A DNA stretch of 64,000 nucleotides from positions 13,489 to 77,488 of the forward strand of contig JAFVOQ010000020.1 in NCBI GenBank assembly GCA_017505785.1. The letters run 5' to 3'. The notes beneath the pieces were generated by a model that made no database searches, had not been told where the DNA came from, and saw nothing but the letters and a program-made list of their open reading frames with translations. Every line of letters begins with the position of its first letter. Position 1 is the stretch's first letter. The position numbers and the translations under genes are program-made. The stretch comes from Clostridia bacterium. Its GTDB lineage: Bacteria > Bacillota > Clostridia > Oscillospirales > CAG-272. Of the stretch, positions 3,407 through 49,988 are shown piece by piece.

Positions 3407-3484
3407 ATTTACCCTTTGGGTGTAAGAAATTTAACCAAACTTTGGAAGGTGTTCCGCACGGACTGCGGAAGACAAGGAGGAAAT

Positions 3485-15720: not shown

Positions 15721-16055
15721 GCGCACGCCTCCTTCTTTGCGATCAAGGCTGACAGCCGAAGAGGCGAGCCGCACGGGCTCGACTCCTCCGGGCGATACCT
15801 TCAAAATAATATTATAGCAAAATAAGTTTACAATGTCAATCCCGTAAGGCAATGAAGTTTGTGACAAGTTTTCTCGCTACCGCAGGTTGCCGAAATTTGT
15901 GGAAAAAATTAGAAATTCTGTTAAAAAAATGCAAAATTTGTTGAATTTACTCATATAAAGTATTTCAAAAAATCTTGTGTTTTAAAAATGTATATGTTAT
16001 AATATAATCAGGTATATCGACATACCGTTTTATCAAGACGAAATGAGGTGATAGC

Positions 16056-17972: not shown

Positions 17973-18041
17973 ATATCCCCGCAAATCCCCTTTTTGAACC
18001 CCGCAATGCTACAATGCAATAAAAACCATGGAGGACATAGT

Positions 18042-20371: not shown

Positions 20372-20510
20372 TCAAAAAGCGATGGGAGAGCAGCAAGGCT
20401 GTGATCCTTTCGAACATAATAAAGCGGGATGCTGTGATAGCGTACGATCTGTGTCGCTTTTTAACAGCATCCCGCAAGACAGTAAAAAAAGCAAACATAC
20501 AGGAGTAAAC

Positions 20511-21947: not shown

Positions 21948-21965
21948 TCCGGAGGAACCCCTAAC

Positions 21966-24401
21966 ATGAATTACACCCCTAACGCAAAAGATGTAAAAAA
22001 GAATATTGAAGAAAAGCTTTCCCGCCATTTCGGCATGACAGCAAAGGAAGCAACCAAGGAGCAGCTCTACAAGGCGGCGGCACTTACCGTCAAGGATATC
22101 TTGGTAGAGAAGCGCAATCAGTTTAAGGATAAGGTAAACGAACAGGGCGCTAAGCGCGTGTACTATATGTGCATGGAATTTCTGCTTGGCAGATCCCTTA
22201 AGACCAATCTTTGCAACCTTGGCTTGCAGGAGAATTACCGCAAGGCACTGAAATCCCTTGGTGCAGATCTTGAGGTGCTGTATGAGTGTGAGCCCGATGC
22301 AGGTCTTGGTAACGGCGGTCTTGGCCGACTTGCCGCCTGCTTTATGGATTCGCTCTCCTCGCTTGATTATCCCGCAACCGGCTTTTCGCTTTGCTATGAG
22401 TACGGTCTTTTCAAGCAAATGATCGTTGACGGTATGCAGATCGAGCTGCCCGATGCATGGCTGCCCGGCGGTGAGGTTTGGCTCTCGCCCCGTGCCGACC
22501 GTGTGTACAAGGTGCATTTCGGCGGACACGTGAAGGAGGAATGGAGGGACGGCAAGCTGGATATCACCTATGAGGGTGGTGAGGAGTATGAGGCCGTTCC
22601 CTACGATATGATGATCTCGGGTGCTGACAGCGATGCGGTATCCCAGCTTCGCTTGTGGAAGGCAAGGCCCGTCAGCAGCTTTAACATGGGTCTTTTCTCG
22701 CAGGGACAGTATACCCTTGCTATGGAGCAGACCAACAACGCAGATATCATTACGAAGGTGCTGTATCCTGCCGACAACCATACCGAGGGCAAGCTTTTGC
22801 GCCTTACCCAGCAGTATTTCTTGGTTTCCGCTTCCTGTCAGAGCATCATTCGCGATCACATGATGGTTTACGGCAATCTTGACAATCTCCCCGAAAAGGT
22901 ATCGATCCATATCAACGATACCCACCCTGCACTCTGCGTTCCCGAGCTGATGCGTATTCTCATTGACGAGTATTGCTTCTCTTGGGAAAAGGCATGGGAT
23001 ATTGTTACACGTACGGTTTCCTATACCAACCACACCGTTATGCCCGAGGCACTTGAAACCTGGAATGAGGATCTTTTTGCTCTCAAGCTGCCCCGTATTC
23101 ATATGATCGTAAAGGAGATCAACGAGCGTTTTTGCCGCGAGGCTTGGCAATTCTTCCCCGGCAACTGGAACCGCATTTCCGCACTCAGCGTAATTGCTTA
23201 CGGTCAGGTGCGTATGGCAAACCTTTCGGTGATCGGCTCGCATAAGATCAACGGTGTGTCAAAGCTTCACTCCGATATTTTGGTAGATACCGTATTTAAG
23301 GATTTCTACCGCATGTACCCGAGTCGCTTTACCAACGTAACAAACGGTATCGCGCATCGCCGTTGGCTGGTCTACTCCAATCCCGAGCTCGCAGGCCTGC
23401 TTGACGAGTGCATCGGCGAAGGGTACCGTCACGAGCCCGAGCGCCTTGCCGATTTCCTCAAATACAGCAATGACGCTGCCGTGCTGGAAAAGCTTGCTGC
23501 CATTAAGCACAATAATAAGGTGCGCTTTGCAAATCATTTGCAGAAGAAGACGGGCATTGTGCTTGACACCAACTCGATCTTTGACGTGCAGATCAAGCGC
23601 TTGCATGAGTATAAGCGTCAGCTTCTCAATGCCCTGAACATCATTGGCCTTTATTTGGATCTCAAGGAAAATCCCAATTTGGATATACAGCCCCAAACCT
23701 TTATCTTCGGTGCTAAGGCGGCTCCCGGCTATGCTATGGCAAAGCGCATCATTAAGCTGCTGTGCATGCTGCAAAAGGATATTGAGCAGCATCCGAAGAT
23801 CGCCGCTAAGCTGCGTGTGGTATTCCTTGAGGATTACAACGTCAGCACTGCCGAGGCGCTTATCCCCTCTGCCGAGATCAGTGAGCAGATCTCTATGGCA
23901 GGTAAGGAGGCAAGCGGTACGGGCTGCATGAAGCTTATGATCAACGGTGCGCTTACCATTGGTACGCTTGACGGTGCAAACGTAGAGATGCAAGCGGCAA
24001 CCGGCCCCGAAAATATGTTCATCTTCGGTCTTAGTGCCAACGAGGTCAGTGAGCTTTGGAACAAGGGCTACAATTCCGCACTGTACTATGCACAAAATGA
24101 GCGTCTTGCACGCATCGTCAACTACCTTAACGTTGGCTTTGCGGGTGAGAACTTCTCGGATATCGCGACCTACCTGCTGGCAGGCCCCGGCGTTGCCGAT
24201 CCCTATCTTTGCCTTGCTGATTTCGAGTCCTACCGTCAAGCACACTTGGCGGCCCTCAATGCCTATGCAGATAAGACACGCTGGAACCGTATGTCGCTTG
24301 CTAACATTGCAGGCGCGGGCTTCTTCGCCGCGGATCGCAGCATCAACGATTACGCAAGAGATATTTGGCATCTCAAGCGTCTTGTTACAGAGAAGAAATA
24401 A
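21966..24401 (+). CDS. glgP: glycogen/maltodextrin phosphorylase
   Basis: 811 aa with GNGGLGRLAACF and the PLP-site region EASGTGCMKLMINGA. Confidence 0.95.
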   Translation: MNYTPNAKDVKKNIEEKLSRHFGMTAKEATKEQLYKAAALTVKDILVEKRNQFKDKVNEQGAKRVYYMCMEFLLGRSLKTNLCNLGLQENYRKALKSLGADLEVLYECEPDAGLGNGGLGRLAACFMDSLSSLDYPATGFSLCYEYGLFKQMIVDGMQIELPDAWLPGGEVWLSPRADRVYKVHFGGHVKEEWRDGKLDITYEGGEEYEAVPYDMMISGADSDAVSQLRLWKARPVSSFNMGLFSQGQYTLAMEQTNNADIITKVLYPADNHTEGKLLRLTQQYFLVSASCQSIIRDHMMVYGNLDNLPEKVSIHINDTHPALCVPELMRILIDEYCFSWEKAWDIVTRTVSYTNHTVMPEALETWNEDLFALKLPRIHMIVKEINERFCREAWQFFPGNWNRISALSVIAYGQVRMANLSVIGSHKINGVSKLHSDILVDTVFKDFYRMYPSRFTNVTNGIAHRRWLVYSNPELAGLLDECIGEGYRHEPERLADFLKYSNDAAVLEKLAAIKHNNKVRFANHLQKKTGIVLDTNSIFDVQIKRLHEYKRQLLNALNIIGLYLDLKENPNLDIQPQTFIFGAKAAPGYAMAKRIIKLLCMLQKDIEQHPKIAAKLRVVFLEDYNVSTAEALIPSAEISEQISMAGKEASGTGCMKLMINGALTIGTLDGANVEMQAATGPENMFIFGLSANEVSELWNKGYNSALYYAQNERLARIVNYLNVGFAGENFSDIATYLLAGPGVADPYLCLADFESYRQAHLAALNAYADKTRWNRMSLANIAGAGFFAADRSINDYARDIWHLKRLVTEKK

Positions 24402-26317
24402 TGTTAGCTAAAAAACAGCTTGAATTTCCCCTGCCGCAGCTGAAAAAGCATGTAGGCGGCAGGGATGTAAGCGCGCGCGGTGCCTTCTTCTGCCGTGATA
24501 CCTTGGTATTCACGGCACAGGTGCCGCGCACCATGGGCGCGGCCGCTGTTGTGCTGCGTATTGCGCCCGACGGGGGCAGGGATGCGGATCATCCATTTGC
24601 CTTTGTTGATACCAAGGGCGGGATCGATACCTACCGCCTTTCGGTATCCCTTAAAGAACTTACATCGCCCCGCACGCACGGGCTTTTTTACTATGAGCTG
24701 CTGTTTCTGCGCAGCGGGGACACGCTCTTTACCGATACCAAGAGTGATAACGTAAGCTTTTCACTTTCCACTGAGAGCCGCGGCAGATTTCGGCTATTGG
24801 TTTCGGAAAACGAGTATACAACGCCTGCGTGGTTTCACGGAAAAACGATGTATCATATTTTTGTGGATCGCTTTGCCCCCCACGGGGGTGTGCACCCCGA
24901 GGGGGCGGTGTATCATGAGGGGTGGTATGAGGAGATCGAGCAGTTTGGCGCTTATCCGGGAGCTCCCGTTGCCAACAACGAGTTTTTTGGCGGCACACTG
25001 TGGGGCGTGATCGATAAGCTCGATTATCTTGCAGAGCTCGGTGTTGGTGTGATCTATCTCTCGCCTATCTTCAAGTCGGTATCCAACCACAAATACGATA
25101 CGGGCGACTATGAAACGGTGGATCCGCAGTTTGGCGGCAGAAGGGCCCTCGATGCCTTGATCGCGGCGGCCGCGGAGCGCGGTATGGGCGTGATGCTTGA
25201 CGGCGTGTTTAATCACACGGGTGATAATAGCCGTTATTTTGACCGTTACAGCACTTACGGTGGGAACGGTGCGTACAATTCAAAGCAATCCCCCTATTAC
25301 GATTGGTTTTATTTTAAGCAGTATCCCGATAAATACGAGTGCTGGTGGGATATTCCGATCCTGCCGAAGCTCAATCTTTCAAACCCTGCTGTGCACCAAT
25401 ATTTTGTGGGTGAGGGCGGTATCATCGATACCTATACCAAGGCAGGAATACTGGGTTGGCGACTTGACGTTGCTGACGAGCTGCCCAACGCCTTTCTCGA
25501 TGACCTGCGCCTGCGCGTGAAGAACGCCACGGGCGGTGAGGGCGTGGTGTTAGGCGAGGTATGGGAGAACGCCGCGGATAAGATCGCCTATGGCAAGCGC
25601 CGCCGTTACTTTGAGGGCAAGCAGCTGGACAGCGTGATGAATTATCCGTTGCGCCGTGGCATCATTTCCTTTGTGCGCGACGGCGATGCCGCAGCCCTTT
25701 GCGCCGCTTTGCGTGAGCTTTGGGGCTCGTATCCCACGTCGGTTTGTCACAGCCTGATGAACATTCTCTCCACACACGATACCGAGCGTATTCTTACCAC
25801 CCTTGGCGGTCAGAAGGACGACGGGCGTTTTACAAACGCCGAGCTGCGCAAAATGCGCATGTCCCCTGCCGCGCGTGCGATTGCCCTATCCCGTTTGCGG
25901 ATCGCTGCGGCATTACAGTATACCGTATTTGGTGTGCCCTCGCTTTTCTACGGTGATGAGGCCGGACTTGAGGGGTATCATGATCCCTTCTGTCGCCGTC
26001 CCTATCCTTGGGGGCGCGAGGACAAGTCGCTTTTGCGGTATTACAAAAAGCTTGGCAGGATCAGGCGCGAGAACGCCGTTTTCGCCGACGGGGATTTTGA
26101 GATCGTTGCTGAGTCTGCGCATGCCATTGCTTTTTCGCGCAAGAATGAGAAAGGGCATATCATTGTAGGTGCAAATTGCGGCAGTGAGCCATTTTCTATA
26201 TGCCTGCCTCGCCCCGCCCGCGATCTGCTTTCGGGCAAGCAGTATGGACGCCGCGTTACGCTTGACGCGGGAGAAGTTTGCGTTTGGAGGATAAAGCATG
26301 TTTCGTCGCATCATTGA
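24401..26317 (+). CDS. GH13 alpha-glucosidase/neopullulanase-like glycoside hydrolase
   Basis: ATG at 24401 overlaps the glgP stop. GH13 conserved regions are present (DGVFNHTG, GWRLDVADEL, GEVWE, LSTHDTER). Confidence 0.85.
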   Translation: MLAKKQLEFPLPQLKKHVGGRDVSARGAFFCRDTLVFTAQVPRTMGAAAVVLRIAPDGGRDADHPFAFVDTKGGIDTYRLSVSLKELTSPRTHGLFYYELLFLRSGDTLFTDTKSDNVSFSLSTESRGRFRLLVSENEYTTPAWFHGKTMYHIFVDRFAPHGGVHPEGAVYHEGWYEEIEQFGAYPGAPVANNEFFGGTLWGVIDKLDYLAELGVGVIYLSPIFKSVSNHKYDTGDYETVDPQFGGRRALDALIAAAAERGMGVMLDGVFNHTGDNSRYFDRYSTYGGNGAYNSKQSPYYDWFYFKQYPDKYECWWDIPILPKLNLSNPAVHQYFVGEGGIIDTYTKAGILGWRLDVADELPNAFLDDLRLRVKNATGGEGVVLGEVWENAADKIAYGKRRRYFEGKQLDSVMNYPLRRGIISFVRDGDAAALCAALRELWGSYPTSVCHSLMNILSTHDTERILTTLGGQKDDGRFTNAELRKMRMSPAARAIALSRLRIAAALQYTVFGVPSLFYGDEAGLEGYHDPFCRRPYPWGREDKSLLRYYKKLGRIRRENAVFADGDFEIVAESAHAIAFSRKNEKGHIIVGANCGSEPFSICLPRPARDLLSGKQYGRRVTLDAGEVCVWRIKHVSSHH

Positions 26318-27049: not shown

Positions 27050-28930
27050 TTATGAGGCATTTTCAGTGTTCCACTGATATTTTTCGGACTGGACACGAAA
27101 CATTTCTGCATATTTGCCGTTTTGCAATAGAAGCTCGCTGTGACTGCCTTCTTCAATCAATCTGCCGCTATCAAACATATATATTTTGTCGGCAATACGT
27201 GTTGTTGAAAGTCTGTGCGAGATGAAAATGACGGTTTTGTCATTTGTGTGATGCAATATCGACTGGTTGAGCTTATACTCAGCCATAGGGTCAAGCGCAC
27301 TGGAGGGCTCGTCCATGATAATCAAGGTGTGATCCTTTGCAAATACGCGTGAGATCGCTACCTTTTGTGCCTCGCCCCCTGAAAGATTGGTGCCCTTGTC
27401 ATTGAATTCACGTGTGAGATGTGTGTGTATCCCGTCGGCAAGCTCTGATAGCTTTTCACTGAAATCTGCCGCTTCGAGCGCTTTTTGTACGGTTTCCCTA
27501 TCCTTGGTATCATCATAGCTGCCGTTCATAACGTTTTCAGCCACCGTGGTAGCAAATATCTTGAAATCCTGAAACACTGTACCGATCATTTTACGGTATT
27601 CGTCGGTGTCAAATTCCTTTATATTTATACCGTTGTAGAGGATCTCTCCCTCTGTTGGGTCATAAAGACGCATGATGAGCTTGATCAGTGTGGTTTTTCC
27701 TGCACCGTTATATCCCACGATCGCTATTTTTTCTCCCTTGTGGATCGTTAGATTGACATTCTTTAGCGCGTCCTTATTTTCATCCTCTTTTTTGGGTGAT
27801 ATATGATCTTCATCATGAAAAAGATATTTGGGATGCGCGGAAAATTCGTAGGAAAAGCTTACGTTTCTCAGCTCGAGTGATTCAAATGGGGGCAGCGATA
27901 GCTGGCCTTTTTTGATATTGGGTGTAAATCTTAAAAACTCGCGGTATTTTTCTACATACAAGGAATGCTTTGCATATTTGGTCAGCCTTTCCGTAAGGTC
28001 TGTTAGCATCCAGCGTATCTTTCCAACTACGGTAGCACTTGCTGCAAATCCACCGATCAGAAGTGAGCCTTTGCCAAGCATGACGATCATGTATATAAGG
28101 ATGAGCGAATAGGTAAGGTTGAATGCGGCATTCCACCCAAGACCGTACAGAAAAAAATACTTTTTCCCGTACTTTTGTTCCATATCAATAATTTTTTGCG
28201 CATTTTCATCGTATTCCTGCATCAGCAGATCGTCTGCGCGGCTGATACGGAGCTCCTTTGCATAATCGGAAAGGCGATATACGCGGTTGATATAGGAATT
28301 TTTTCGCCATAGCGGCGTGGATTCCTTGCTGTGCTGAAAGCTTACTTTGTTTCCGAGCAGATTACAGATGACAGTGATGGCTGATGATACAAGCAAAATC
28401 AAAGCAATAATGGGATCTACGGTTATCAGTAAGCTTATGAGCGTTGTGGAAGCCACAATTCTGTTTATCAGCTTTCCTGTATCCTCGAGCACCTCTGTGG
28501 CACGTGTGTGGGATTCGTTCATTGCCCATACGTAATCATCGTAGAATTCGGGATCGTCAAAGCAAGCGAGGTCAAGGGAGCGCGACTTTACAAAAAGCTC
28601 CTCGTGCATCTTCAGATACAGCTTTTCACGCATGATGGGATTGTGTATGCTCCGATACCATCTGTCAAACAGATAAGCGAGGATATAAAACAGCGCCATG
28701 AAAGCAATTATTTTTAGGGCGTGTGCAAAATCCGTGCCTTGGCTTACGGTATTCAAAAGATTGAATGTGTAATAAGCTGAAGCAGAATTGATAAATCCCC
28801 AGATAACACCCTCAATGATCATGAAGATAAAGTAGTCGGGTGTGTGTTTGGCAATCTTTTTTATCATAAAAAGATTGTTTTTGAAGATCGACGATATTTT
28901 TTGCTTTTTCCTTTGGGTTTTAGCATGCAT
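27050..28930 (-). CDS. ABC exporter, fused permease/ATP-binding subunit
   Basis: 626 aa with an N-terminal 6-TM domain and a C-terminal NBD (Walker A GYNGAGKTT, signature LSGGEAQK, Walker B LIIMDEPSS). Confidence 0.9.
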   Translation of the reverse strand: MHAKTQRKKQKISSIFKNNLFMIKKIAKHTPDYFIFMIIEGVIWGFINSASAYYTFNLLNTVSQGTDFAHALKIIAFMALFYILAYLFDRWYRSIHNPIMREKLYLKMHEELFVKSRSLDLACFDDPEFYDDYVWAMNESHTRATEVLEDTGKLINRIVASTTLISLLITVDPIIALILLVSSAITVICNLLGNKVSFQHSKESTPLWRKNSYINRVYRLSDYAKELRISRADDLLMQEYDENAQKIIDMEQKYGKKYFFLYGLGWNAAFNLTYSLILIYMIVMLGKGSLLIGGFAASATVVGKIRWMLTDLTERLTKYAKHSLYVEKYREFLRFTPNIKKGQLSLPPFESLELRNVSFSYEFSAHPKYLFHDEDHISPKKEDENKDALKNVNLTIHKGEKIAIVGYNGAGKTTLIKLIMRLYDPTEGEILYNGINIKEFDTDEYRKMIGTVFQDFKIFATTVAENVMNGSYDDTKDRETVQKALEAADFSEKLSELADGIHTHLTREFNDKGTNLSGGEAQKVAISRVFAKDHTLIIMDEPSSALDPMAEYKLNQSILHHTNDKTVIFISHRLSTTRIADKIYMFDSGRLIEEGSHSELLLQNGKYAEMFRVQSEKYQWNTENAS

Positions 28931-30779
28931 CCTGCTTCACCTCGCTTCCAAGATAATTTTGTGCCTGACGGTTAAACATTTCGGCGTATTTTCCGTTTTG
29001 ATCCATAAGCTCCCGGTGGGTTCCGGATTCTATGATACATCCGTCGTCCATAAGAAGGATCCGATCGGCAAGCACGGCAGAAGAAAGCCTGTGTGAAATG
29101 AATATAACGCTTCTTCCCTTAGTGGCGCGCATCATATTTTCAAACATTTTATATTCGGCAATCGGGTCAAGCGCGCTGGATGGCTCATCAAGGATAACAA
29201 AAGGTGTGCTGTCCCCAAATATCCTTGCCAGTGACAGCTTTTGCTGCTCACCGACCGAGAGATTTTCTCCTTTTTTATCAAATTCGCGTGTGAGCACGGT
29301 GTCAAGACCGTTTTTCATCCGTTCTACACGTTCAAATGCGCCGCTTTCCCGCAGTGCATGCTCCACAAGCTCTCTATCTCCCGTTCTTTGGGGGCGGAGC
29401 AGGACATTGTCCTTCACGCTCATGGAAAACATTTTGAAATCTTGAAAAACCGTACTGAAGGAATTGCGATAGGATGAAAGTGAAAACTCCTTTATGTTTT
29501 GATCGCCGAGTGTGATCTCTCCTTCGGTTGGGTCATATAGGCGCAGCATCAATTTGATCAGTGTAGTTTTGCCCGAGCCATTGCTTCCTACAAGTGCTAC
29601 ACGCTCACCCTTTCGTAGGGTAAAGCTTATGTTTTTCAATGTGTCGTGCTCCGCGCCGTCATATTTGAAGAAAAGGTTTTTTACCGCGATATCTCCGCCG
29701 TCGTTGGGGGCAACAAGCGCACCGCCAACAAGGGTGGGCTCGTAATCGAGAAAGAAGCGCACGTCCTCAAGGAAAAGCGCGTGCTCGCCAAATTCGGCAA
29801 AATTTTGCACAAGGTTGTTCAGGCAATAAGAGATCGTACCGATAGATCCGATCACCACGATACAGTCGCCGATATTCATGCCTCCGTTTTGCGGACCTAT
29901 CACCATGTTGCTCCATACTGCATAAAGTGTAGCTCCCAGCACCGTAACCACCTCAAGCCCTACATTTCGGATATAGCCAAAAATTGCCTTGCGCGTGCCG
30001 TGCTTTTTTGTAAGTGCGCAAAAATCACGGATGCTTTCTCTGAAATCGCGCAGCATGTTTTCGTGCATTCCACCGATACGCATCTCTTTGGCGTATTCGC
30101 CAAGATAAAAGGTTCTGCGCACATATTCTTTGCGGCGGTTGATAGGCTTCTTTGCGGCTTTATATTTGTGATTTGCAATATTCTCAAGGCGCCTGAAAAA
30201 GCCCAAAAGGAGAGGGAACAGACCGAAAAGTATAAGTAATGGATCAATAATAAAAAGCAAAAGAGAGTTTGCAAAAAGCGCGGTGAATTTCCCGATCAGA
30301 CTGTCGAGTGTCTGCATGACTTTTATAACGCGGTTTTGTGCTTCGTCCATTGCTTTTACGTATTTGTCGTAGAAGGAAGGGGTTTCGTAGCATGCCAGTT
30401 CTACCGTTGCTGCTTTTCTAAACAGCATTTTCTGAATATGCATAGCGATTTTTCTATACATTTTTTGAGAAGTGACACGCCAAAACCATTGCAGCGCTGT
30501 GTATGTAATTAAAATGACAGCGCCGAGAATTGCGGTAAACATCAAAGCATTGGCTATGGGGGTGCCGCTTGAGATATCGTTAACAATTTTTCTTAAAAGA
30601 TAAGAGCCCGAAAGGAAATCAAGGGTTCCGTATACGATCGAGGAGGATAAATAGATAAAAAGATATATGGGCGATGCCCGCCATATCGCTTTCAGGGCAA
30701 AAATGTTGTTTGATATGTTTCTTTTAAGAGAAAGCTTTTTCTTTTTTTCTTTGGATTTATCGTTTGTTTTTTTAGGCAT
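28920..30779 (-). CDS. ABC exporter, fused permease/ATP-binding subunit (heterodimer partner)
   Basis: ATG at 30779 (MPKKTNDKSKEKKKK...). NBD motifs are GSNGSGKTT, LSVGEQQK and FVILDEPSS. It overlaps the downstream partner by 11 nt. Confidence 0.9.
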   Translation of the reverse strand: MPKKTNDKSKEKKKKLSLKRNISNNIFALKAIWRASPIYLFIYLSSSIVYGTLDFLSGSYLLRKIVNDISSGTPIANALMFTAILGAVILITYTALQWFWRVTSQKMYRKIAMHIQKMLFRKAATVELACYETPSFYDKYVKAMDEAQNRVIKVMQTLDSLIGKFTALFANSLLLFIIDPLLILFGLFPLLLGFFRRLENIANHKYKAAKKPINRRKEYVRRTFYLGEYAKEMRIGGMHENMLRDFRESIRDFCALTKKHGTRKAIFGYIRNVGLEVVTVLGATLYAVWSNMVIGPQNGGMNIGDCIVVIGSIGTISYCLNNLVQNFAEFGEHALFLEDVRFFLDYEPTLVGGALVAPNDGGDIAVKNLFFKYDGAEHDTLKNISFTLRKGERVALVGSNGSGKTTLIKLMLRLYDPTEGEITLGDQNIKEFSLSSYRNSFSTVFQDFKMFSMSVKDNVLLRPQRTGDRELVEHALRESGAFERVERMKNGLDTVLTREFDKKGENLSVGEQQKLSLARIFGDSTPFVILDEPSSALDPIAEYKMFENMMRATKGRSVIFISHRLSSAVLADRILLMDDGCIIESGTHRELMDQNGKYAEMFNRQAQNYLGSEVKQDAC

Positions 30780-30813
30780 TTTTAACCTCACTGCATAAAT
30801 GCTTACGATGGTT

Positions 30814-31023
30814 TTAGTTTTCTTCAAACAGATTTTTGATCTCAACGCCAAGCGCCGCGGCAAGATCGTCAAGTATGAGAAGGTCGGGACAGCTTTGCCC
30901 ACGTTCCCATTTGGAAACTGCTTGAACCGAAACAAAGCATTTTTCTGCCACGTCTTGCTGCTTTAAGTGTGCCATATGTCGAAGATGGGAAAGTCTTTGT
31001 CCGAAATTTTTTATATCGAGCAC
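30814..31023 (-). CDS. small XRE-family HTH regulator
   Basis: GTG at 31023 preceded by AAAGGAGG. The ~69-aa product (…FGQRLSHLRHMAHLKQQDVAEKCFVSVQAVSKWERGQSCPDLLILDDLAAALGV) is a typical HTH_3 protein. The track's longer ATG-initiated version lacks an RBS. Confidence 0.75.
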   Translation of the reverse strand: MLDIKNFGQRLSHLRHMAHLKQQDVAEKCFVSVQAVSKWERGQSCPDLLILDDLAAALGVEIKNLFEEN

Positions 31024-31287: not shown

Positions 31288-32331
31288 ATGCCAGATCTAA
31301 AGCTCATCAAAAATCCGGGATATGTTTATGATCTTATTTTTTTGTTTTATTACAAGTACAATGTCGATCAATTTCCCGAATTGTTTGAAGCAAATGAAGA
31401 AGACATGAAGTATTTTTCCGAGAAATTCAAGCTTTTTGAACCAATCTCGGATGATCTATACATTTTTTTCAGAGCCGCAGCGGATAAGCATTGCTTTTTT
31501 ACTTTAAACTATTTTCACAACTGTGCGAAGGCGTTTACAACCGAGTATGACCTTGCTTTTTTGCAAAAGCAGATAAATGATTACGACTTGTTTGTGAAAA
31601 ACGTGATCGAATACTATTTTGAAGACCTTGATGAGAGTGAAATAAATGAATGTATAGGATCAAAAAAACATTTATTTGAGATCATAAAAAAATCGGATTA
31701 TGATGATAAGTTAAAGGCAAAGCTCTATGAGTTTTTCATGGACCCGGAGTATTATATACGTGTGCTACAGTATGAGCTTATGGCGAAAGATGTTCAGCTT
31801 TCCTCCTACTATGAACGAAATTATGCGAAGATACTTGATGCGTATAATGAGTTGAATTATGAATTACTTGAGGAAAGGTTTAGCTTTCTCGAGTATCCGA
31901 AAATTGACAAGGCTGCTGGGAATCCTATATATCTTTCATTTTGCCTTTTAAATAAAAATCTTTTGCAGTTTAGATGCGCTTCACAAGTGCTTTATTTGAT
32001 AGGGATTGAGTATCTTTCTTCCCTTGAACGTTTGAAAAAAAAGCATATCGATCTTATCCCCGAGCAGTTTGGCGCGGCGCTGTCTGATGTCAACCGTGTA
32101 AAAATGCTTGAGATCATCCTGCAAAAGACAGAGTGTACCTGCAAGGATCTTGAGGTGATGCTGGGACTCCCCCCCTCAACGGCATATCATCACGTGAGCA
32201 CGCTTGAAAAGTGTGGGGTTGTGAAAAAAAGGATCATTAAAAAGTCGATCCTTTATAGCATTAACCGAAAATACTTTGCTACAATAATAGAATATTTCAA
32301 AAAATTTTCAGAAACTACCCCAAAGCAGTAA
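31288..32331 (+). CDS. ArsR-like winged-helix protein with a ~250-aa uncharacterised N-terminal domain
   Basis: 347 aa in an AT-rich gene. The C-terminal segment VNRVKMLEIILQKTECTCKDLEVMLGLPPSTAYHHVSTLEKCGVV looks like an ArsR/HTH_20 motif. Promoter TTGACA-N17-TAAAAT lies at about 31226-31254. Confidence 0.75.
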   Translation: MPDLKLIKNPGYVYDLIFLFYYKYNVDQFPELFEANEEDMKYFSEKFKLFEPISDDLYIFFRAAADKHCFFTLNYFHNCAKAFTTEYDLAFLQKQINDYDLFVKNVIEYYFEDLDESEINECIGSKKHLFEIIKKSDYDDKLKAKLYEFFMDPEYYIRVLQYELMAKDVQLSSYYERNYAKILDAYNELNYELLEERFSFLEYPKIDKAAGNPIYLSFCLLNKNLLQFRCASQVLYLIGIEYLSSLERLKKKHIDLIPEQFGAALSDVNRVKMLEIILQKTECTCKDLEVMLGLPPSTAYHHVSTLEKCGVVKKRIIKKSILYSINRKYFATIIEYFKKFSETTPKQ

Positions 32332-32720: not shown

Positions 32721-34097
32721 ATGGTACATCAATATAAACTGAACGGATATAACATTGTGCTCGATACGGCAAGCGGCTCGGTACACGCGGTAGACGAGGT
32801 GGCGTATGACATCATTGCCATGTATGAGCATGCCACAGCCGAGGAGATCGTTTCGGCAATGCTCCAAAAATACGGCGACCGTGAGGACGTCACGCGTGAG
32901 GAGATCCTTGCCTGTCTTGACGATGTTGCGGCACTGAAGGATGCGGGCAAGCTTTTCTCGGTGGATCCTTATGAGAACCTTGCCACTACATACAAAAACA
33001 ACAGTAACGTAGTGAAGGCACTTTGCCTGCACGTGGCACACACCTGCAACCTTTGCTGCGAATATTGCTTTGCGGGGCAGGGCAAATATCAGGGTAAGGA
33101 TGCCTTGATGAGCTTTGAGGTCGGCAAGCAGGCACTTGATTTTCTCATTGCCAATTCGGGTACACGCCGCAACCTTGAGGTCGATTTCTTCGGCGGCGAG
33201 CCGATGATGAACTTTGAGGTCGTAAAGCAGCTGGTGGCTTACGCGCGCGAGGTAGAAAAGGAGAAGGGAAAGAACTTCCGCTTCACCTTTACCACAAACG
33301 GTGTACTGCTTGACGATGACGTGATGGACTTCCTCAACCGTGAGATGAGCAACGTGGTGCTCTCGCTTGACGGCAGAAGGGAGGTCAACGACCACTTCCG
33401 TAAAAACGCGGCAGGCCGCGGCAGCTACGATATTATCGTACCGAAGTTCCAAAAGCTGGTAGAGAAGCGCGGCGGCAAGAATTACTACGTGCGCGGTACG
33501 TTTACCCACCAAAACGTTGATTTTACAAACGACCTGTTCCATATGGCGGATCTCGGCTTTACCGAGCTTAGCATGGAGCCTGTTGTTTGCCCGCCCGATG
33601 ACCCGTATGCCCTCACCAAAGAGGATCTGCCCCTGCTTTTCGAGCAGTATGAGATCCTGGCAAAGGAGATGCTCAGGCGCGAAAAAGAGGGCAGACCCAT
33701 TACCTTTTATCACTATATGCTTGACCTTAAAAACGGGCCTTGCATTTATAAGCGCATCACGGGGTGCGGATCTGGTACCGAATATATGGCTGTAACGCCC
33801 GCAGGTGAGCTCTACCCCTGTCACCAATTTGTAGGTGATGCACGCTATCGCCTTGGTGACGTGTGGAACGGCGTATCGAATACCGCCGTACAGGATGAGT
33901 TTCGCCATTGTAATGCCTATGCACGTTCTGAGTGTAAGGAGTGCTGGGCAAGGCTTTACTGCTCCGGCGGTTGCGCCGCAAACGCTTACCATGCCACGGG
34001 CAGTATTGGCGGTGTTTATGAGTACGGATGCGAGCTCTTTAAAAAGCGTATTGAGTGTGCTGTGATGATGCAGGTTGCCAAATCGGAGCAGGTATGA
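32721..34097 (+). CDS. scfB: radical SAM/SPASM thioether-forming SCIFF maturase
   Basis: 458 aa with the radical-SAM motif CNLCCEYC (Cx3Cx2C) and a C-terminal SPASM Cys cluster (GCGSG…CKECWARLYCSGGCAANAY). It is directly adjacent to scfA. Confidence 0.9.
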   Translation: MVHQYKLNGYNIVLDTASGSVHAVDEVAYDIIAMYEHATAEEIVSAMLQKYGDREDVTREEILACLDDVAALKDAGKLFSVDPYENLATTYKNNSNVVKALCLHVAHTCNLCCEYCFAGQGKYQGKDALMSFEVGKQALDFLIANSGTRRNLEVDFFGGEPMMNFEVVKQLVAYAREVEKEKGKNFRFTFTTNGVLLDDDVMDFLNREMSNVVLSLDGRREVNDHFRKNAAGRGSYDIIVPKFQKLVEKRGGKNYYVRGTFTHQNVDFTNDLFHMADLGFTELSMEPVVCPPDDPYALTKEDLPLLFEQYEILAKEMLRREKEGRPITFYHYMLDLKNGPCIYKRITGCGSGTEYMAVTPAGELYPCHQFVGDARYRLGDVWNGVSNTAVQDEFRHCNAYARSECKECWARLYCSGGCAANAYHATGSIGGVYEYGCELFKKRIECAVMMQVAKSEQV

Positions 34098-44034: not shown

Positions 44035-44063
44035 TTGACAGGCGACGCGAATAATGCTACAAT
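44035..44063 (+). promoter_or_regulatory. promoter of the T-box leader
   Basis: TTGACA (44035-44040), a 17-nt spacer, then TACAAT (44058-44063). Confidence 0.6.
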
Positions 44064-44084
44064 ATTTGTGTATGATAATTTTTA

Positions 44085-44364
44085 CAGGCGATGATGAAAA
44101 AAAGTAGCCGCGAATGCAATCACAGAGAGCCGTTGGTGCTGGGATAACGGTATGTGCACGGGGTGAAAGAACATTTCGGAGCTCTCAACCGAACCTGCAA
44201 GTTGTTGCGGCAGTAGATTTGAGCGCGGCGGCGCGTTATAGCCGAGGGGTATTTGCCGTGTGGCACGTGCCCATGAGGAGTGAAAACTCAAATGCGGGTG
44301 GTACCGCGAAGGCTTGCCTTCGCCCCGAAAGTGTTTCAGGCACTTTCAGGGGCGTTATTTTTTT
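44085..44364 (+). promoter_or_regulatory. T-box riboswitch leader, putative Asn (AAC) specifier
   Basis: Stem I base/K-turn GCGATGATGAAAAAAAGTA, an AGAGAG box, and distal GGTGC. The specifier-loop 3' side reads GAAAG-AAC-A followed by TTTC, which pairs with the 5' GAAA. The T-box sequence AATGCGGGTGGTACCGCG lies at 44291-44308. The terminator is CGCCCCGAAAGTG…CACTTTCAGGGGCG plus TTATTTTTTT. Confidence 0.85.
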
Positions 44365-44598
44365 GCCATGTGCCGCCAAGGCGGCAGGCATCCTCATCCG
44401 TCACGGCTTTGCCGTGCCACCTTCCCCTTCTTGGGGAAGGCAGGAGATAGTGCGAACATTGCGGATGTGTTGAAAACTGTAGCAGATGTTAGAGTAGCCT
44501 TCTCCTGTGGGAGAAGGGGAACCGCCATGGTGGTGGATGAGGAGTCAGCGCAAGGCGCTGCCACCAACAAAGAATTTTTCTCAAATGAGGGAATCGCA
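44365..44598. repeat. GC-rich short-hairpin modules preceding the DUF559 gene
   Basis: Hairpins are GCCGCCaaGGCGGC (44372-44385), CCTTCCCCttcttGGGGAAGG (44420-44440) and CCTTCTCCtgtgGGAGAAGG (44498-44517). There is no independent RBS or start. Confidence 0.55.
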
Positions 44599-44967
44599 AT
44601 GTATCCATACAACAAAAAACTGGTTGGAAATGCGCGGGCACTTCGTAAGCAAATGACCCCCGAGGAGAAGCATATTTGGTATGATTTTTTAAAGATGCTT
44701 CCTATAACGGTGAAAAGGCAAAAGAACATTGAGAATTACATTCTCGATTTTTATATTGCAAGTGCTAAAATTGCGATAGAAATTGACGGATTGCAGCATG
44801 CCTTATCCCAAAACAAGGGGGCAGATCTTGAAAGGGATTTTACACTTGCTCGTTGGGGAATAAAGGTTTTAAGATACACCAATAAAGATATCAACGAACG
44901 TTTTTATGCAGTGTGCGAGGAGATCTTGAATGCGATTGGGCTCACCGCGGTTGATTTAAAAATCTGA
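44599..44967 (+). CDS. DUF559 (Vsr-like) endonuclease-domain protein
   Basis: ATG at 44599. The product MYPYNKKLVGNARALRKQMTPEEKHIWYDFL…YILDFY…IAIEIDGLQH…RDFTLARWGIKVLRYTN matches the DUF559 pattern. The track's N-terminal extension runs through the T-box terminator. Confidence 0.8.
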   Translation: MYPYNKKLVGNARALRKQMTPEEKHIWYDFLKMLPITVKRQKNIENYILDFYIASAKIAIEIDGLQHALSQNKGADLERDFTLARWGIKVLRYTNKDINERFYAVCEEILNAIGLTAVDLKI

Positions 44968-45007
44968 TTTTTTGAAATTTATAAAACATTCCGAAAGGAG
45001 TATCAAT

Positions 45008-47095
45008 ATGAAAAGAACGATTTATTGCGGGCTTGTGAGAGAAGCACACATCGGTACCGACCAGCGTGTTGCCGGTTGGGTTTTAAACAAGCGCGACATG
45101 GGTGGCGTTATCTTTATCGACCTGCGCGACCGCGAGGGCGTGGTGCAGGTGGTATTTGATGCTGCCAATCTCACGGCACAGGATTTTGCTGTGGCAGAGA
45201 GTCTGAAAAACCAGTCCGTGATTTCGGCACTGGGGGCTGTACGGTTGCGCGATGCCGAAACGGTAAACCCCCGTATTGCAACGGGCACGGTGGAGGTCAT
45301 GGCAACCTCGCTTGAGCTTTTGTCGCAATGCGATCAGCTCCCCTTCTCGCCCGAGGACAATCAAAATACGCGTGAGGATCTGCGCCTGAAGTATCGCTAT
45401 ATCGATCTGCGCCGCCCCTCCATGTATCACAATTTAAAGACCCGTGCCTTTATTCAGCGCACGGTAGAGCGGTATCTTGACGAGCACGGATTTTTATGTG
45501 TAGAAACGCCCATGCTCTGTAAATCCACGCCCGAGGGTGCGCGTGACTATCTTGTGCCCTCTCGCGTGCATCCCGGCAGCTTTTACGCGCTGCCCCAATC
45601 CCCCCAGATCTACAAGCAGCTCTTGATGGTGGGCGGTATTGACCGCTACTATCAGGTGGCACGGTGCTTCCGTGACGAGGATCTGCGTGCTGACCGTCAG
45701 CCTGAGTTTACGCAGGTGGATATGGAGATGTCCTTTGTCGAGCAGGAGGATGTGTTAGAGCATCTTGAGGGAATGTTTAAGGATCTGTTTTATAAGGTGA
45801 AGGGCATTGATATCAAGGAGCCGTTCCAGCGCATCACATGGCATGAGGCAATGGATAAATACGGCTCGGATAAGCCCGACCTGCGCTTTGATCTGCCCAT
45901 TGTTGACGTAACCGATCTTGCAGCTGCTTCTACCTTCTCGGTCTTTCATTCCGTCACCAAAGAGGGCGGTGTGGTGCGCGCCATTTGCGTGCCGGGTGCC
46001 GGCGAAAAATTTGCCCGTACCGATATTGAAAATCTCACGGAGGCGGCAATATCCTTTGGTGCAAAGGGCATGGCGTGGATCCTTTTGCGCGCCGACGGCA
46101 CGGTAAACTCCATTCTCCCCAAATACTTTACCGAGGAGGGCTTCAAGGCTCTGCTGGGTCGCCTTGGCGCGAAGGCGGGCGACTTTATCCTGTTTTCGGC
46201 AGACAAGCTTGCAACCGTTCGCAAGGTGCTGGGTGCTTTGCGCCTTAACGTTGCGGATATGCTGGGGCTTCGCCACAAGGACGAATACAAGTTCTTGTTT
46301 GTTACCGACTTTCCGCAGTTTGAATACTCCGAGGAGGAGGATCGCTTTGTGGCGACCCACCACCCCTTTACCATGCCCTATCCCGAGGATGTACAGTACC
46401 TCTTAACCGATAAGGCAAGAGTGCGCGCACAGGCGTATGACGTGGTATTAAACGGCGTGGAGCTTGGCTCGGGATCGGTGCGTATTCACAACCGTGACGT
46501 GCAAAAGGTGATGTTTGAGGCACTCGGCTTCTCAAACGAGGAGATCGAGGATCGCTTTGGCTTTATGGTGGGTGCGTTCCGCTACGGCACGCCCCCCCAC
46601 GCAGGCTTTGCCTTCGGTCTTGACCGCTTCGTGATGCTTATGGTGGGCGCAGATAGCCTAAGAGAGGTTATCGCATTCCCCAAGATCAAGGATGCCTCCT
46701 GTCCCATGACCGATGCACCCACCCCCGTTGATGCCTCGCAGCTTGAGGTGCTTGGCCTTGGTCAAGCACTTGAGGGGAGTGTTGGTGGCAAAACGGGTGC
46801 AAAAAAAGCAGCCCCTACCATTGACGTAGAAAGAATTGCAGACCTTGCCCGTCTTTCGCTTTCGAGTGAGGAAAAGGCACGCGTGGCAAGCGATATGGGC
46901 GCGATCATCGGCTTTGCCGATCAGCTTTCGGCAGTCGATACCGCAGGGGTCGCGGAGGCGACCTATGTGGTTGACCTTAAAAACGTGCTCCGCGAGGATG
47001 AGCCCGAAAACAATTTTGAACGCGAGGCACTGCTTGCCAATGCCAAAACCAAGGCACAGGGGTATGTCACTGTGCCCCGTGTTGTAGAAGGATAA
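45008..47095 (+). CDS. aspS: aspartate--tRNA ligase fused in frame to GatC
   Basis: ATG at 45008 after AAAGGAG, giving 695 aa. Residues ~1-590 form a bacterial-type AspRS (…FRDEDLRADRQPEFTQVDMEMSF…GSGSVRIH…GLDR…). After the linker GSVGGKTGAKKAAP, the last ~95 aa (TIDVERIADLARLSLSSEEKARV…VDLKNVLREDEP…GYVTVPRVVEG) are a full GatC. There is no stop and no in-frame ATG, GTG or TTG at the junction. Confidence 0.85.
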   Translation: MKRTIYCGLVREAHIGTDQRVAGWVLNKRDMGGVIFIDLRDREGVVQVVFDAANLTAQDFAVAESLKNQSVISALGAVRLRDAETVNPRIATGTVEVMATSLELLSQCDQLPFSPEDNQNTREDLRLKYRYIDLRRPSMYHNLKTRAFIQRTVERYLDEHGFLCVETPMLCKSTPEGARDYLVPSRVHPGSFYALPQSPQIYKQLLMVGGIDRYYQVARCFRDEDLRADRQPEFTQVDMEMSFVEQEDVLEHLEGMFKDLFYKVKGIDIKEPFQRITWHEAMDKYGSDKPDLRFDLPIVDVTDLAAASTFSVFHSVTKEGGVVRAICVPGAGEKFARTDIENLTEAAISFGAKGMAWILLRADGTVNSILPKYFTEEGFKALLGRLGAKAGDFILFSADKLATVRKVLGALRLNVADMLGLRHKDEYKFLFVTDFPQFEYSEEEDRFVATHHPFTMPYPEDVQYLLTDKARVRAQAYDVVLNGVELGSGSVRIHNRDVQKVMFEALGFSNEEIEDRFGFMVGAFRYGTPPHAGFAFGLDRFVMLMVGADSLREVIAFPKIKDASCPMTDAPTPVDASQLEVLGLGQALEGSVGGKTGAKKAAPTIDVERIADLARLSLSSEEKARVASDMGAIIGFADQLSAVDTAGVAEATYVVDLKNVLREDEPENNFEREALLANAKTKAQGYVTVPRVVEG

Positions 47096-47106
47096 GGAGG
47101 TAAACG

Positions 47107-48558
47107 ATGTCTGATTTGTTAAAAATGAATGTGTCGGAGCAAGCCCTTGCCCTTCGCGAGAAAAAGATCTCGTCAGCAGAGCTGACCAAGGCATATATTG
47201 CCTCAATTGAGGAAAACGAGCCCCGTGTGGGGGCATATATCTCGACTGACGCGCGCCGTGCGCTTGATATGGCAATTGCTGTTGATAAGCGCCGCGCCGC
47301 CGGCGAGGAGCTCTCGGCGCTGGCAGGCATCCCCATGGGCGTGAAGGATAATATCTGCACCAAGGGTGTTGCTACCACCTGTGCTTCCAAAATGCTTGCC
47401 GATTACGTGCCGCCCTACAACGCGCACGTGGTGGAAAACCTTGAAAAAGCAGGCTTTGTTATGCTTGGCAAGCTCAATATGGATGAGTTTGCCATGGGGT
47501 CTACCACTGAGAACTCGGCGATGAAGATCACCCACAATCCCCTTGACCTCTCGCGCGTGCCGGGTGGTAGCTCGGGCGGCTCTGCCGCCGCTGTTGCCGC
47601 AAACGAGGCGGCGTATACGCTGGGGTCTGATACGGGCGGCTCGATCCGCCAGCCTGCCGCATTTTGCGGCGTGGTGGGCATGAAGCCTACCTACGGTACA
47701 GTTTCCCGTTACGGTCTTGTGGCGTTTGCCTCGTCGCTTGATCAGATCGGCCCGCTGACCAAGACCGTGCGTGATAATGCTATGGTGCTGAATGTGATCG
47801 CAGGACATGATAAGCGCGATGCTACCTCTGTTGACCGCGTATACGGTGATTTCACAGCCGAGATCGGCCGCGGCGTGGCAGGACTTACGATCGGTATCCC
47901 GAAGGAGTTTTTTGGGGAGGGTATTTCTCCCGACGTGAAGGAAGCCGTACTGAATGCCGCTAAACGGTATGAAAAAATGGGCGCAAGGCTGCTTGAGGTG
48001 TCAATGCCCGCGATCGACCACGCACTGGCGGCGTATTACGTGATCTCCAGTGCCGAGGCATCCTCTAACCTTGCTCGCTTTGACGGTGTGCGATACGGCT
48101 ACCGTACCGAGGAATTTTCTGACATTGCGGAGCTTTATAAAAAGAGCCGTTCCGAGGGCTTTGGCGCAGAGGTCAAGCGCCGCATTATGCTGGGCACCTT
48201 TGCCCTCTCCTCGGGCTATTACGATGCTTACTATAAAAAGGCGTTGCAGGTGCGTGCCCTTGTGCGTGCCGATTATGACCGCGTGCTTGAAAAATGCGAC
48301 GTGATCCTCTCGCCCGTAGCACCCACCGTGGCGTATAAGCTCGGTGAAAAGAGCCAAAATCCGCTGGAAATGTATATGGGCGATGCGTACAGCGTACCCG
48401 TTAACGTGGCGGGTATTCCCGCCCTCTCACTCCCGTGCGGCGTGGGCGAGGGCAATATGCCCGTAGGGCTTCAGCTCATGGGCAAGCCCTTCAGCGAGGC
48501 ACTGCTTTACCGTGTTGGCGCGGCACTTGAAGACGATATGGGAGGTGCAAGAGTATGA
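47107..48558 (+). CDS. gatA: Asp-tRNA(Asn)/Glu-tRNA(Gln) amidotransferase subunit A
   Basis: 483 aa with the amidase signature GGSSGGSAAAVA…GSDTGGSIRQPA. Confidence 0.95.
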   Translation: MSDLLKMNVSEQALALREKKISSAELTKAYIASIEENEPRVGAYISTDARRALDMAIAVDKRRAAGEELSALAGIPMGVKDNICTKGVATTCASKMLADYVPPYNAHVVENLEKAGFVMLGKLNMDEFAMGSTTENSAMKITHNPLDLSRVPGGSSGGSAAAVAANEAAYTLGSDTGGSIRQPAAFCGVVGMKPTYGTVSRYGLVAFASSLDQIGPLTKTVRDNAMVLNVIAGHDKRDATSVDRVYGDFTAEIGRGVAGLTIGIPKEFFGEGISPDVKEAVLNAAKRYEKMGARLLEVSMPAIDHALAAYYVISSAEASSNLARFDGVRYGYRTEEFSDIAELYKKSRSEGFGAEVKRRIMLGTFALSSGYYDAYYKKALQVRALVRADYDRVLEKCDVILSPVAPTVAYKLGEKSQNPLEMYMGDAYSVPVNVAGIPALSLPCGVGEGNMPVGLQLMGKPFSEALLYRVGAALEDDMGGARV

Positions 48559-49988
48559 CGCTTTATAAAGGCTATGAAATGGTGATCGGTCTTGAGGTGC
48601 ACGTAGAGCTCAAAACCAAAACCAAGATCTTTTGCTCCTGTCCCACGACCTTTGGGGCCCTGCCCAATACCCAGTGCTGTCCCGTGTGCATGGGCTATCC
48701 CGGCACGCTGCCCGTGCTGAACAAAAAAGTGGTGGAGTATGCCGTAAAGGCAGGCCTTGCCACCAATTGTAAAATTGCCAACTATTCCAAGGAGGATAGA
48801 AAAAATTATTTCTATCCCGATCTGCCGAAGGCTTATCAGATCTCGCAGTACGACCTGCCGCTTTGCGAGCATGGCTGGCTTGATGTGGAAACCGAGGCGG
48901 GTGCCAAGCGTATTGGCATTACGCGTATTCACATTGAGGAGGATGCAGGCAAGCTGGTGCACGACGACACGCACGGCACCATGATCGACTGCAACCGCTG
49001 CGGTGTGCCCCTCATTGAGATCGTTTCCGAGCCCGATATCCGTTCTGCCGAGGAGGCAAAGGCGTATCTTCAGAAGCTGCGTGCGATCATTCTTTACACG
49101 GGCGTTTCCGACTGTAAGATGCAGGAGGGGTCCCTTAGATGTGACGTCAACCTGTCGGTTCGAAAAGCAGGCGAGGAGAAGTTTGGCACGCGCACCGAGA
49201 TGAAGAACCTCAACTCCTTCCAGTTTATCGTCAAAGCGATCGAGTATGAGTATAAGCGTCAGGTAGATGCCATTGAAGCAGGAGAGGCTATTGTGCAGGA
49301 AACGCGCCGCTTTGACCCTGCCACGGGCAAGACCTACACGATGCGCTCTAAGGAAAATGCAAACGATTATCGCTATTTCCCCGATCCCGACCTGCCCCCC
49401 ATTGAGCTTTCCGATGCCGCGATCAAGGCACTTGGCAATGAGATCCCCGAGCTGCCCGATGCGCGCAAAGCCGCGTATATGCAAAAATACGGCCTTACTG
49501 CCTATGACGGTGAGGTTTTGACCTCCGATAAGGCAATGGCAGATTACTTTGAGGCGGCGGCCGCCACCACAAAGCACCCCAAGCTTGCGGCAAATCTCCT
49601 GATTTCCGAGTTTATGCGCCTGATTGAAACGGAGAGCTTTTCCTGCCCCGTGTCGGCAGAAAACCTCGGCGAGCTTGCCACGCTCGTTGGCGATGACGTG
49701 ATCAACAGCTCCACCGCCAAGAAACTCATTAAGGAAATGTTTGAAACCAACGCTTCCCCGAAGGCTCTGGTGGAGGAAAGAGGACTTGCACAGATCAACG
49801 ATGAGGTGCTGCTCGGCCAGCTTGTAGCCGAGGCAGTAGCCGCTAACCCCAAGTCGGTTGCCGACTACAAAAAGGGCAAGCTTGCCGCCGCCAAGGCGAT
49901 CGTTGGTAACGTCATGGGCAAGACTGCAGGCAAGGGTAACCCCGTCATTATCAACCGCTTGCTTGAGGAAGAGCTCAAAAAGTATTAA
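48555..49988 (+). CDS. gatB: Asp-tRNA(Asn)/Glu-tRNA(Gln) amidotransferase subunit B
   Basis: 477 aa with GLEVHVELKTKTKIFC… and a C-terminal YqeY-like tail. Its start overlaps the gatA stop. Confidence 0.95.
   Translation: MTLYKGYEMVIGLEVHVELKTKTKIFCSCPTTFGALPNTQCCPVCMGYPGTLPVLNKKVVEYAVKAGLATNCKIANYSKEDRKNYFYPDLPKAYQISQYDLPLCEHGWLDVETEAGAKRIGITRIHIEEDAGKLVHDDTHGTMIDCNRCGVPLIEIVSEPDIRSAEEAKAYLQKLRAIILYTGVSDCKMQEGSLRCDVNLSVRKAGEEKFGTRTEMKNLNSFQFIVKAIEYEYKRQVDAIEAGEAIVQETRRFDPATGKTYTMRSKENANDYRYFPDPDLPPIELSDAAIKALGNEIPELPDARKAAYMQKYGLTAYDGEVLTSDKAMADYFEAAAATTKHPKLAANLLISEFMRLIETESFSCPVSAENLGELATLVGDDVINSSTAKKLIKEMFETNASPKALVEERGLAQINDEVLLGQLVAEAVAANPKSVADYKKGKLAAAKAIVGNVMGKTAGKGNPVIINRLLEEELKKY

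Follow-up and report, generated by a model that had tools for sequence, protein, structure and literature searches.

A natural aspS::gatC fusion gene behind an asparagine T-box in uncultured gut Clostridia: a candidate covalently linked Asn-transamidosome

In the window analysed here, a 64,000-nucleotide stretch of contig JAFVOQ010000020.1 from the Clostridia bacterium assembly GCA_017505785.1, a single unbroken open reading frame (ORF) at 45008-47095 on the + strand joins a bacterial-type aspartyl-tRNA synthetase (AspRS) to GatC, a subunit of the amidotransferase GatCAB, and is followed by gatA and gatB. Our results suggest that these genes form a single transcription unit under an asparagine-specific T-box and that the product would be an Asn-transamidosome pre-assembled through a covalent link, a reading to which we assign a probability of roughly 0.75.

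The fused gene and its two enzyme parts

The fused ORF comprises 695 codons and encodes a protein with a predicted mass of 77.5 kDa. The longest open frame by ORF call is 44972-47095, with a TTG at its start; GAAAGGAG at 44993-45000 precedes the ATG at 45008. The protein is laid out as AspRS (residues 1-584), linker (residues 585-604) and GatC (residues 605-695), and the corresponding stretches of DNA are as follows.

45008-46759, + strand: AspRS part of the fusion (Pfam, NCBIfam, 1EQR and 4WJ3_M matches)
46760-46819, + strand: linker of the fusion, GQALEGSVGGKTGAKKAAPT, 18-25 amino acids long among species, with a basic patch
46820-47095, + strand: GatC part of the fusion plus stop codon (TIGR00135 match, 2DF4_C alignment)

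The preliminary description of this DNA had claimed a stop-free frame running from a complete AspRS into a complete GatC, and the Pfam and NCBIfam matches along the 695 codons bear this out. The AspRS part matches the NCBIfam profile aspS_bact TIGR00459 with 743 bits (cut-off 374; amino acids 1-582 against profile positions 1-579 of 586) and NF001750 with 814 bits (cut-off 443), while the GatC part matches gatC TIGR00135 with 85.5 bits (cut-off 47.1; amino acids 605-694 against profile positions 4-93 of 93). As the matches to TIGR00459 and TIGR00135 are near full length, both parts are complete. The Pfam domains found along the protein are tRNA_anti-codon (PF01336) at 20-105, tRNA-synt_2 (PF00152) at 123-560 (E 4e-120, profile 2-307 of 308), GAD (PF02938) at 313-408 and GatC (PF02686) at 618-689 (E 1e-17, profile 1-66 of 66). 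All three domains of a bacterial-type AspRS are thus present: the oligonucleotide-binding (OB) domain that binds the anticodon, the class II catalytic core and GAD, the insertion by which this type is told from the archaeal one (PMC4206432). Among proteins of known structure, the AspRS part matches E. coli AspRS (1EQR) with E 2e-174, and the GatC part aligns with S. aureus GatC (2DF4_C) free of gaps over residues 8-95 (E 4e-15).

Conservation of the fusion

The fusion is shared by many species. The best 120 matches to the protein in a collection of 5.8 billion proteins, which range from 98% down to 66% identity, all carry the AspRS and GatC Pfam domains together (120/120), most of them in proteins of about 690-700 amino acids, and the domain architecture claimed in the preliminary description for one sequence is thereby found throughout its closest homologues. 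A scan of the linker and GatC alignment against one genome per GTDB species gave 60 loci, all from uncultured gut Clostridia (Oscillospiraceae, Acutalibacteraceae, Congzhengia, Ca. Avispirillum and genomes labelled 'Ruminococcus sp.') and sampled from sheep, goat, roe deer, rabbit and other gut or faecal sources. At species level the fused frame extends through the full AspRS in every locus with sufficient upstream sequence (50/50), gatA is the next gene in all fused loci, and gatB follows wherever the contig is long enough. None of these 50 loci has a stop codon or frameshift, although identity is as low as 67% in AspRS and 48% in GatC. The fusion is therefore characteristic of a large clade of Oscillospiraceae-like gut Clostridia.

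The length of the linker is constrained while its sequence drifts freely between species. It is 20 amino acids long at 26 loci, 22 at 13 and 21 at six, with a range of 18-25 and a mode of 20. In the window it has 20 residues, mainly Gly, Lys and Ala, and in most linkers a patch of Lys and Arg lies directly N-terminal to GatC. In the AlphaFold2 model of the fusion the predicted local distance difference test score (pLDDT) is below 50 for residues 556-604.

The asparagine T-box leader

Upstream of the fused gene lies a leader with its own terminator.

44082-44330, + strand: T-box leader RNA (Rfam RF00230, full model 1-219)
44321-44366, + strand: intrinsic terminator belonging to the leader (stem of 15 bp that includes a bulged A, followed by a U-run)

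The leader matches RF00230 with 97.9 bits (gathering threshold 93; E 2e-22) over model positions 1-219 of 219. The specifier position in the Rfam alignment is AAC (Asn) at 44170-44172, followed by the purine A at 44173, and the T-box core GGGUGGUACCGCG lies at 44297-44309. The terminator has a folding energy of -22.7 kcal/mol (z = -5.2 against shuffled sequences), is directly followed by UUAUUUUUUU and overlaps the 3' half of the antiterminator. The leader therefore has all the features of a T-box: a specifier followed by a purine, a core with the UGGN bulge, two competing helices and an aminoacylation gene downstream.

The same element accompanies the fused gene in other species. Rfam places a T-box at the gathering threshold 5' of the fusion gene in 8 of the 12 related loci tested, and of the 48 loci with 350 nt or more of upstream sequence, 46 have the core motif ahead of aspS::gatC. 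In the remaining two the motif was not found: in L038 Rfam still gives a T-box match below the gathering score (E 1.5e-16), and in L006 the contig ends short of the expected position. AAC is invariant in the nine aligned leaders and in all further leaders read, which suggests that the operon is controlled by uncharged tRNA-Asn. Most leaders have G ahead of AAC, giving GAAC with overlapping GAA (Glu) and AAC (Asn) codons; in some this base is A or U, so that AAC alone is universal. At the variable position of UGGN the different species have U or C, both of which can pair with a G73 discriminator. Standalone gatC-gatA-gatB operons in four related genomes (L054-L056 and L058) gave no T-box match at E values up to 0.01 and have no aspS within the 6 kb of upstream flank; the absence of a T-box match there suggests that the Asn T-box goes with the fused operon specifically. 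We regard the Asn T-box as the strongest support for reading the locus as a transamidosome.

Proposed working of the operon

The elements of the unit would be, in order, a promoter, the Asn T-box leader, an inserted DUF559 gene, aspS::gatC, gatA, gatB and a terminator. As uncharged tRNA-Asn accumulates, its pairing with the leader at the AAC specifier and at the bulge UGGU would stabilise the antiterminator and allow read-through into the operon. The first product would be a chain of 77.5 kDa made up of the bacterial-type AspRS, a flexible linker of about 20 amino acids and GatC. In the amidotransferase, GatA and GatB are held together by GatC, the belt subunit; since AspRS moreover dimerises, the GatC part would be expected to recruit GatA and GatB into an (AspRS-GatC)2 GatA2 GatB2 particle. 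In such a particle the AspRS part would put Asp on tRNA-Asn, and the tethered GatCAB would amidate it to Asn-tRNA-Asn before release. The tether would fix a 1:1 stoichiometry and make complex formation constitutive and independent of tRNA concentration. Both the assembly and the channelling by a tethered complex are inferences.

Which tRNA the fused AspRS serves

The Asn T-box and the fusion to GatC indirectly support a non-discriminating AspRS, and charging by the fused enzyme would be non-discriminating or directed to tRNA-Asn. Because an Asn-sensing switch precedes the AspRS gene, the data suggest that the fused AspRS is a paralogue dedicated to tRNA-Asn, with a second, housekeeping AspRS probably encoded elsewhere in the genome; a paralogue of this kind would then be marked by the Asn-specific T-box ahead of its gene. 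The nearest AspRSs outside the family are unfused and share at most 51% identity with it. The closest of them (P0121, 51% identity) sits in a classical hisS-aspS housekeeping pair, which suggests that the fused gene is a diverged paralogue.

Three observations set limits to the reading as a tethered enzyme devoted to tRNA-Asn. His31 and Gly83 in the anticodon domain of P. aeruginosa AspRS are linked to relaxed specificity, a signature for which a literature search gave nothing further; the fusion has Met31 and Glu84 (in the loop), which resemble neither the non-discriminating nor the discriminating enzymes (residue 31 is Leu in the discriminating AspRSs of E. coli and T. thermophilus and His in 4WJ3). 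Within the 64-kb window there is no AsnRS, AsnA/AsnB, GlnRS, second AspRS or tRNA-Asn gene; the window has no tRNA gene at all, and among the 60 loci the only tRNAs are those for Val, Asp and Phe, all in L046. Finally, the AlphaFold2 monomer has a mean pLDDT of 69.7, with the linker and the GatC part at low confidence, and is uninformative about docking; low confidence in GatC is to be expected, since this subunit folds against GatA and GatB.

The alternative that survives best is that the fused AspRS is the cell's sole, general-purpose AspRS and that the fusion is a near-neutral consequence of aspS and gatC having been neighbours when a stop codon was lost, and so has no special role in channelling. 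The AspRS part does score like an ordinary bacterial AspRS and is equally near to the discriminating enzymes of E. coli and T. thermophilus and to the Asp/Asn enzyme of P. aeruginosa. However, the T-box is specific for Asn and not for Asp, which would be an odd control for the only source of Asp-tRNA-Asp, and the housekeeping position of P0121 suggests that the fused gene has diverged as a paralogue. The constraint on linker length and the independent appearance of covalent links between AspRS and GatCAB in other lineages also speak against a neutral by-product, and we consider this alternative unlikely.

The reading of the locus as a covalently linked Asn-transamidosome can be carried further. 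The fused AspRS would be a dedicated tRNA-Asn enzyme, and the particle would act as a two-step 'AsnRS', constitutive and tRNA-independent. Many of the abundant gut Clostridia not yet in culture would obtain all their Asn-tRNA-Asn, and perhaps their asparagine too, from this particle alone, and uncharged tRNA-Asn would set its level directly through the T-box. We offer this extended version tentatively, as one that is possible but on the whole doubtful.

The junction and the question of separate products

According to the preliminary description, the junction offers no in-frame ATG, GTG or TTG at which a separate GatC could start. This holds for codons 582-625, which offer nothing but ATT codons (605 and 610). 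The nearest upstream in-frame candidate is a GTG at codon 581, which lies within the AspRS tail and lacks a Shine-Dalgarno (SD) sequence, and the nearest downstream candidate is a GTG at codon 626, whose use would cost about 22 N-terminal residues of GatC. Among 54 loci, no conserved internal start with an SD sequence was found in or near the linker; the positions of candidates are scattered, and an in-frame candidate with an SD-like match of at least 4 nt near the junction occurs in only 5 of the 54. An internal start giving a separate GatC was thus rejected, there being none in codons 582-625 and none at a position shared among the 54 loci. Inside the linker there is a run of seven A at 46801-46807, and the A AAA AAA at 46802 is formally a -1 slippery heptamer, with the -1 frame reaching a stop after five codons. 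Programmed -1 frameshifting or slippage was rejected as a conserved mechanism, the heptamer being found only in the window, in its nearest relatives L001 and L002 and in one further locus, L021.

Even with a fused gene, two proteins might be made from it, with internal initiation, proteolysis of the linker or ribosomal or transcriptional slippage on the A-run yielding free AspRS together with some fusion. Slippage gives two products, tau and gamma, from dnaX, and a -1 event at the heptamer in the window would release AspRS without GatC; the linker, as it is predicted to be disordered, may also be open to proteases, and cleavage there is conceivable. However, the heptamer is missing from most of the fused loci, a start codon with an SD sequence is not conserved in or near the linker, and a need for free GatC should have kept or restored a start, of which there is none across about 50 species. 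We think two products even less probable than a sole general-purpose AspRS, and translation of the fusion as one chain is the probable outcome.

The junction was also compared with Logan contigs from four gut-metagenome runs belonging to four different studies. These four independent assemblies cover the region 46400-47200 with zero indels, so that the fused frame of the preliminary description does not stem from an indel in one assembly. One contig from a divergent strain has 38 substitutions in 385 bp over the junction and no gaps, and the reading frame is therefore kept in that strain. The notion that a missed stop or frameshift has artificially merged separate aspS and gatC genes draws on the general prior that metagenome-assembled genomes (MAGs) hold indels and on the A7 run, a type of homopolymer miscalled on some platforms, but it is for practical purposes refuted by these indel-free assemblies, by the in-frame divergent strain and by the 50 species-level genomes and 120 protein clusters that carry the fusion with differing linkers, many of them without an A-run.

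Operon layout and genomic neighbourhood

The remaining features of the operon are listed here.

44035-44063, + strand: sigma-70-type promoter-like site, TTGACA-17-TACAAT with an extended -10 TG, 19 nt 5' of the T-box leader
44599-44967, + strand: small DUF559 gene (Vsr-like endonuclease fold; PF04480, E 2e-22)
47107-48558, + strand: gatA, amidase subunit (PF01425, E 8e-155), syntenic in all fused loci
48555-49988, + strand: gatB (GatB_N, E 2e-128; GatB_Yqey, E 1.5e-38), syntenic where the contig reaches
50011-50055, + strand: operon terminator (16-bp stem, T-run)

That gatA and gatB come directly after the fusion, as previously described, is correct: gatA starts 11 nt past the stop codon of the fused gene, with AAGGAGG ahead of its start, and gatB overlaps the gatA stop. 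The promoter-like site agrees with the consensus at 11 of 12 positions and is the best in the region; it is a candidate by consensus match only.

The DUF559 gene is flanked by the terminator of the T-box leader and the start of aspS::gatC. It lies in a block of about 610 bp (about 44372-44981) that is present in the close relatives L001, L004 and L006 and cleanly absent in another, L002, where the T-box abuts aspS. The gene has no part in the pathway and is probably co-transcribed with the operon, and the block looks like the insertion of a selfish gene into a riboswitch-controlled leader, which would place it under the control of tRNA-Asn. In six further loci (L022, L023, L026, L050, L052 and L057) the T-box core is 425-710 nt 5' of aspS::gatC, compared with about 100 nt elsewhere, and these long stretches (roughly locus positions 3300-4280) contain no convincing ORF. 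Insertions seem to gather in the interval between T-box and aspS. Translation of some of the long stretches, and of 44370-44590 of the window, gives peptides with ...PLCKG.. and ..PSPSWG.., which resemble repeat elements common in gut Firmicutes.

Elsewhere in the window, a glycogen cluster at 16056-26317 contains glgB, glgC, a glgD-like gene, glgA, glgP and a gene of the alpha-amylase family, and infB (3416-6271) and holB (14674-15867) are also present. This ordinary chromosomal context confirms a cellular Clostridia genome. A radical S-adenosylmethionine (SAM) protein with an N-terminal PqqD-like domain, typical of maturases of ribosomally synthesized and post-translationally modified peptides, is encoded at 32721-34094, downstream of two divergently oriented ATP-binding cassette (ABC) transporter genes (27050-30935, - strand) and of an ArsR-type helix-turn-helix protein (31288-32328); this region may be a peptide-modification cluster. 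In the standalone gatCAB relatives L054-L056, lysine riboswitches lie just 3' of gatB, at about 9200-9400.

Implications

Transamidosomes were inferred from biochemistry and from crystal structures in which the proteins are separate. A covalent version that occurs naturally and is conserved in about 50 species, together with at least two other forms, would indicate that selection favours the physical coupling of mischarging and amidation. The fusion would also offer a ready, stable subject for structural and kinetic work on an Asn-transamidosome of the bacterial (GAD) type, whereas the Gln system needed an engineered tether. The name given to the fusion protein is 'Multifunctional fusion protein' in UniRef (for one family member) and 'aspartate--tRNA ligase' at NCBI; because the latter names only the synthetase, gatC and the GatCAB pathway may seem incomplete in reconstructions from gut MAGs. 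The Asn T-box on the fused operon would extend to a large clade of uncultured bacteria the mode of control known from C. acetobutylicum.

Comparison with known systems

Transamidosomes are established complexes, stable in T. thermophilus and dynamic in H. pylori, and those studied consist of separate chains held together largely by tRNA (PMC3367201). The Asn-transamidosomes of P. aeruginosa (4WJ3), T. thermophilus (3KFU) and H. pylori have the same three enzyme components as the window, and the AspRS and GatC parts of the fusion match chain M (E 2.4e-169) and chain C (E 5.5e-11) of 4WJ3. They differ in that their chains are separate, whereas in the window one link is covalent. A tether between GatC and the non-discriminating synthetase of its pathway is also seen in chain C of PDB 3AL0, the glutamine transamidosome of T. 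maritima; there, however, the fusion was engineered for crystallisation, with GatC placed N-terminally and GluRS as its partner, and it belongs to the Gln pathway.

Of the characterised systems the closest is that of C. acetobutylicum, in which, as summarised in the published accounts, a T-box sensing tRNA-Asn controls the transamidation operon (PMC4052509, PMC4206432) and is of a 'two-codon' kind, with overlapping Asn and Glu codon positions (PMC4052509). Measured against those summaries, control by an Asn T-box is common to both systems, and most leaders of the window family likewise have overlapping GAA and AAC, whereas some carry the Asn codon without an overlapping GAA. The summaries of Saad et al. 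2012 and 2013 contain no aspS-gatC fusion.

The joining of AspRS to a GatCAB subunit is not confined to the window family; components of the same pathway have been covalently linked at least twice more, as AspRS-GatC in Desulfobacterales and as GatB::AspRS in Aminipila. The first of these architectures is recorded as NCBIfam NF009460/PRK12820, 'bifunctional aspartyl-tRNA synthetase/aspartyl/glutamyl-tRNA amidotransferase subunit C', which we found in Desulfobacterales. As in the window, a bacterial-type AspRS with GAD is followed by a linker and a C-terminal GatC-like tail, and then by gatA and gatB. The window protein scores 627 bits against NF009460 (profile positions 24-673 of 723), below the cut-off of 1379, and P0158, a protein of the Desulfobacterales type, is likewise below it with 1188 bits (profile positions 18-723). 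The GatC tail of P0158 is very divergent (Pfam GatC, E 4e-4), while the GatC of the window is canonical, with TIGR00135 above its cut-off. In the P0158 locus (L063 5001-9867, ENA ERZ21869602) the order is AspRS-GatC, gatA, gatB, with gatB called as two ORFs (GatB_N and GatB_Yqey), a split that may reflect a frameshift or an assembly error. The two AspRS-GatC families share 41% identity with one another and 46-51% with unfused AspRSs. As each is nearer to unfused AspRSs than to the other, and as they belong to different phyla, the two fusions are likely of independent origin, as judged from pairwise identities and not from a tree.

The second case is a GatB::AspRS protein of 1090 amino acids in Aminipila sp. 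(L064 5001-8273, GCA_032004305.1; P0229/WP_331655381.1), encoded in the operon gatC-gatA-[gatB::aspS]. It was found on six contigs from several sources, and other Aminipila records in the cluster have a separate AspRS of 584 amino acids. Like the window fusion it is a case of AspRS naturally and covalently joined to a subunit of GatCAB, here in a gatCAB-aspS operon of Clostridia, but the AspRS is attached by its N-terminus to GatB, whereas in the window it is joined by its C-terminus to GatC. Two near relatives of the window protein have other additions to AspRS: P0143 (744 amino acids) has a C-terminal YbaK/tRNA_edit (aminoacyl-tRNA deacylase) domain, and P0123 (1029 amino acids) is a HisRS-AspRS fusion that matches the usual hisS-aspS pair and may be either genuine or an artefact of read-through.

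A full-text search of the searchable literature found no paper discussing an AspRS-GatC fusion. The components, the regulatory logic and the database-recorded architecture are thus already known, and what is new here is a probably independent family of the fusion.

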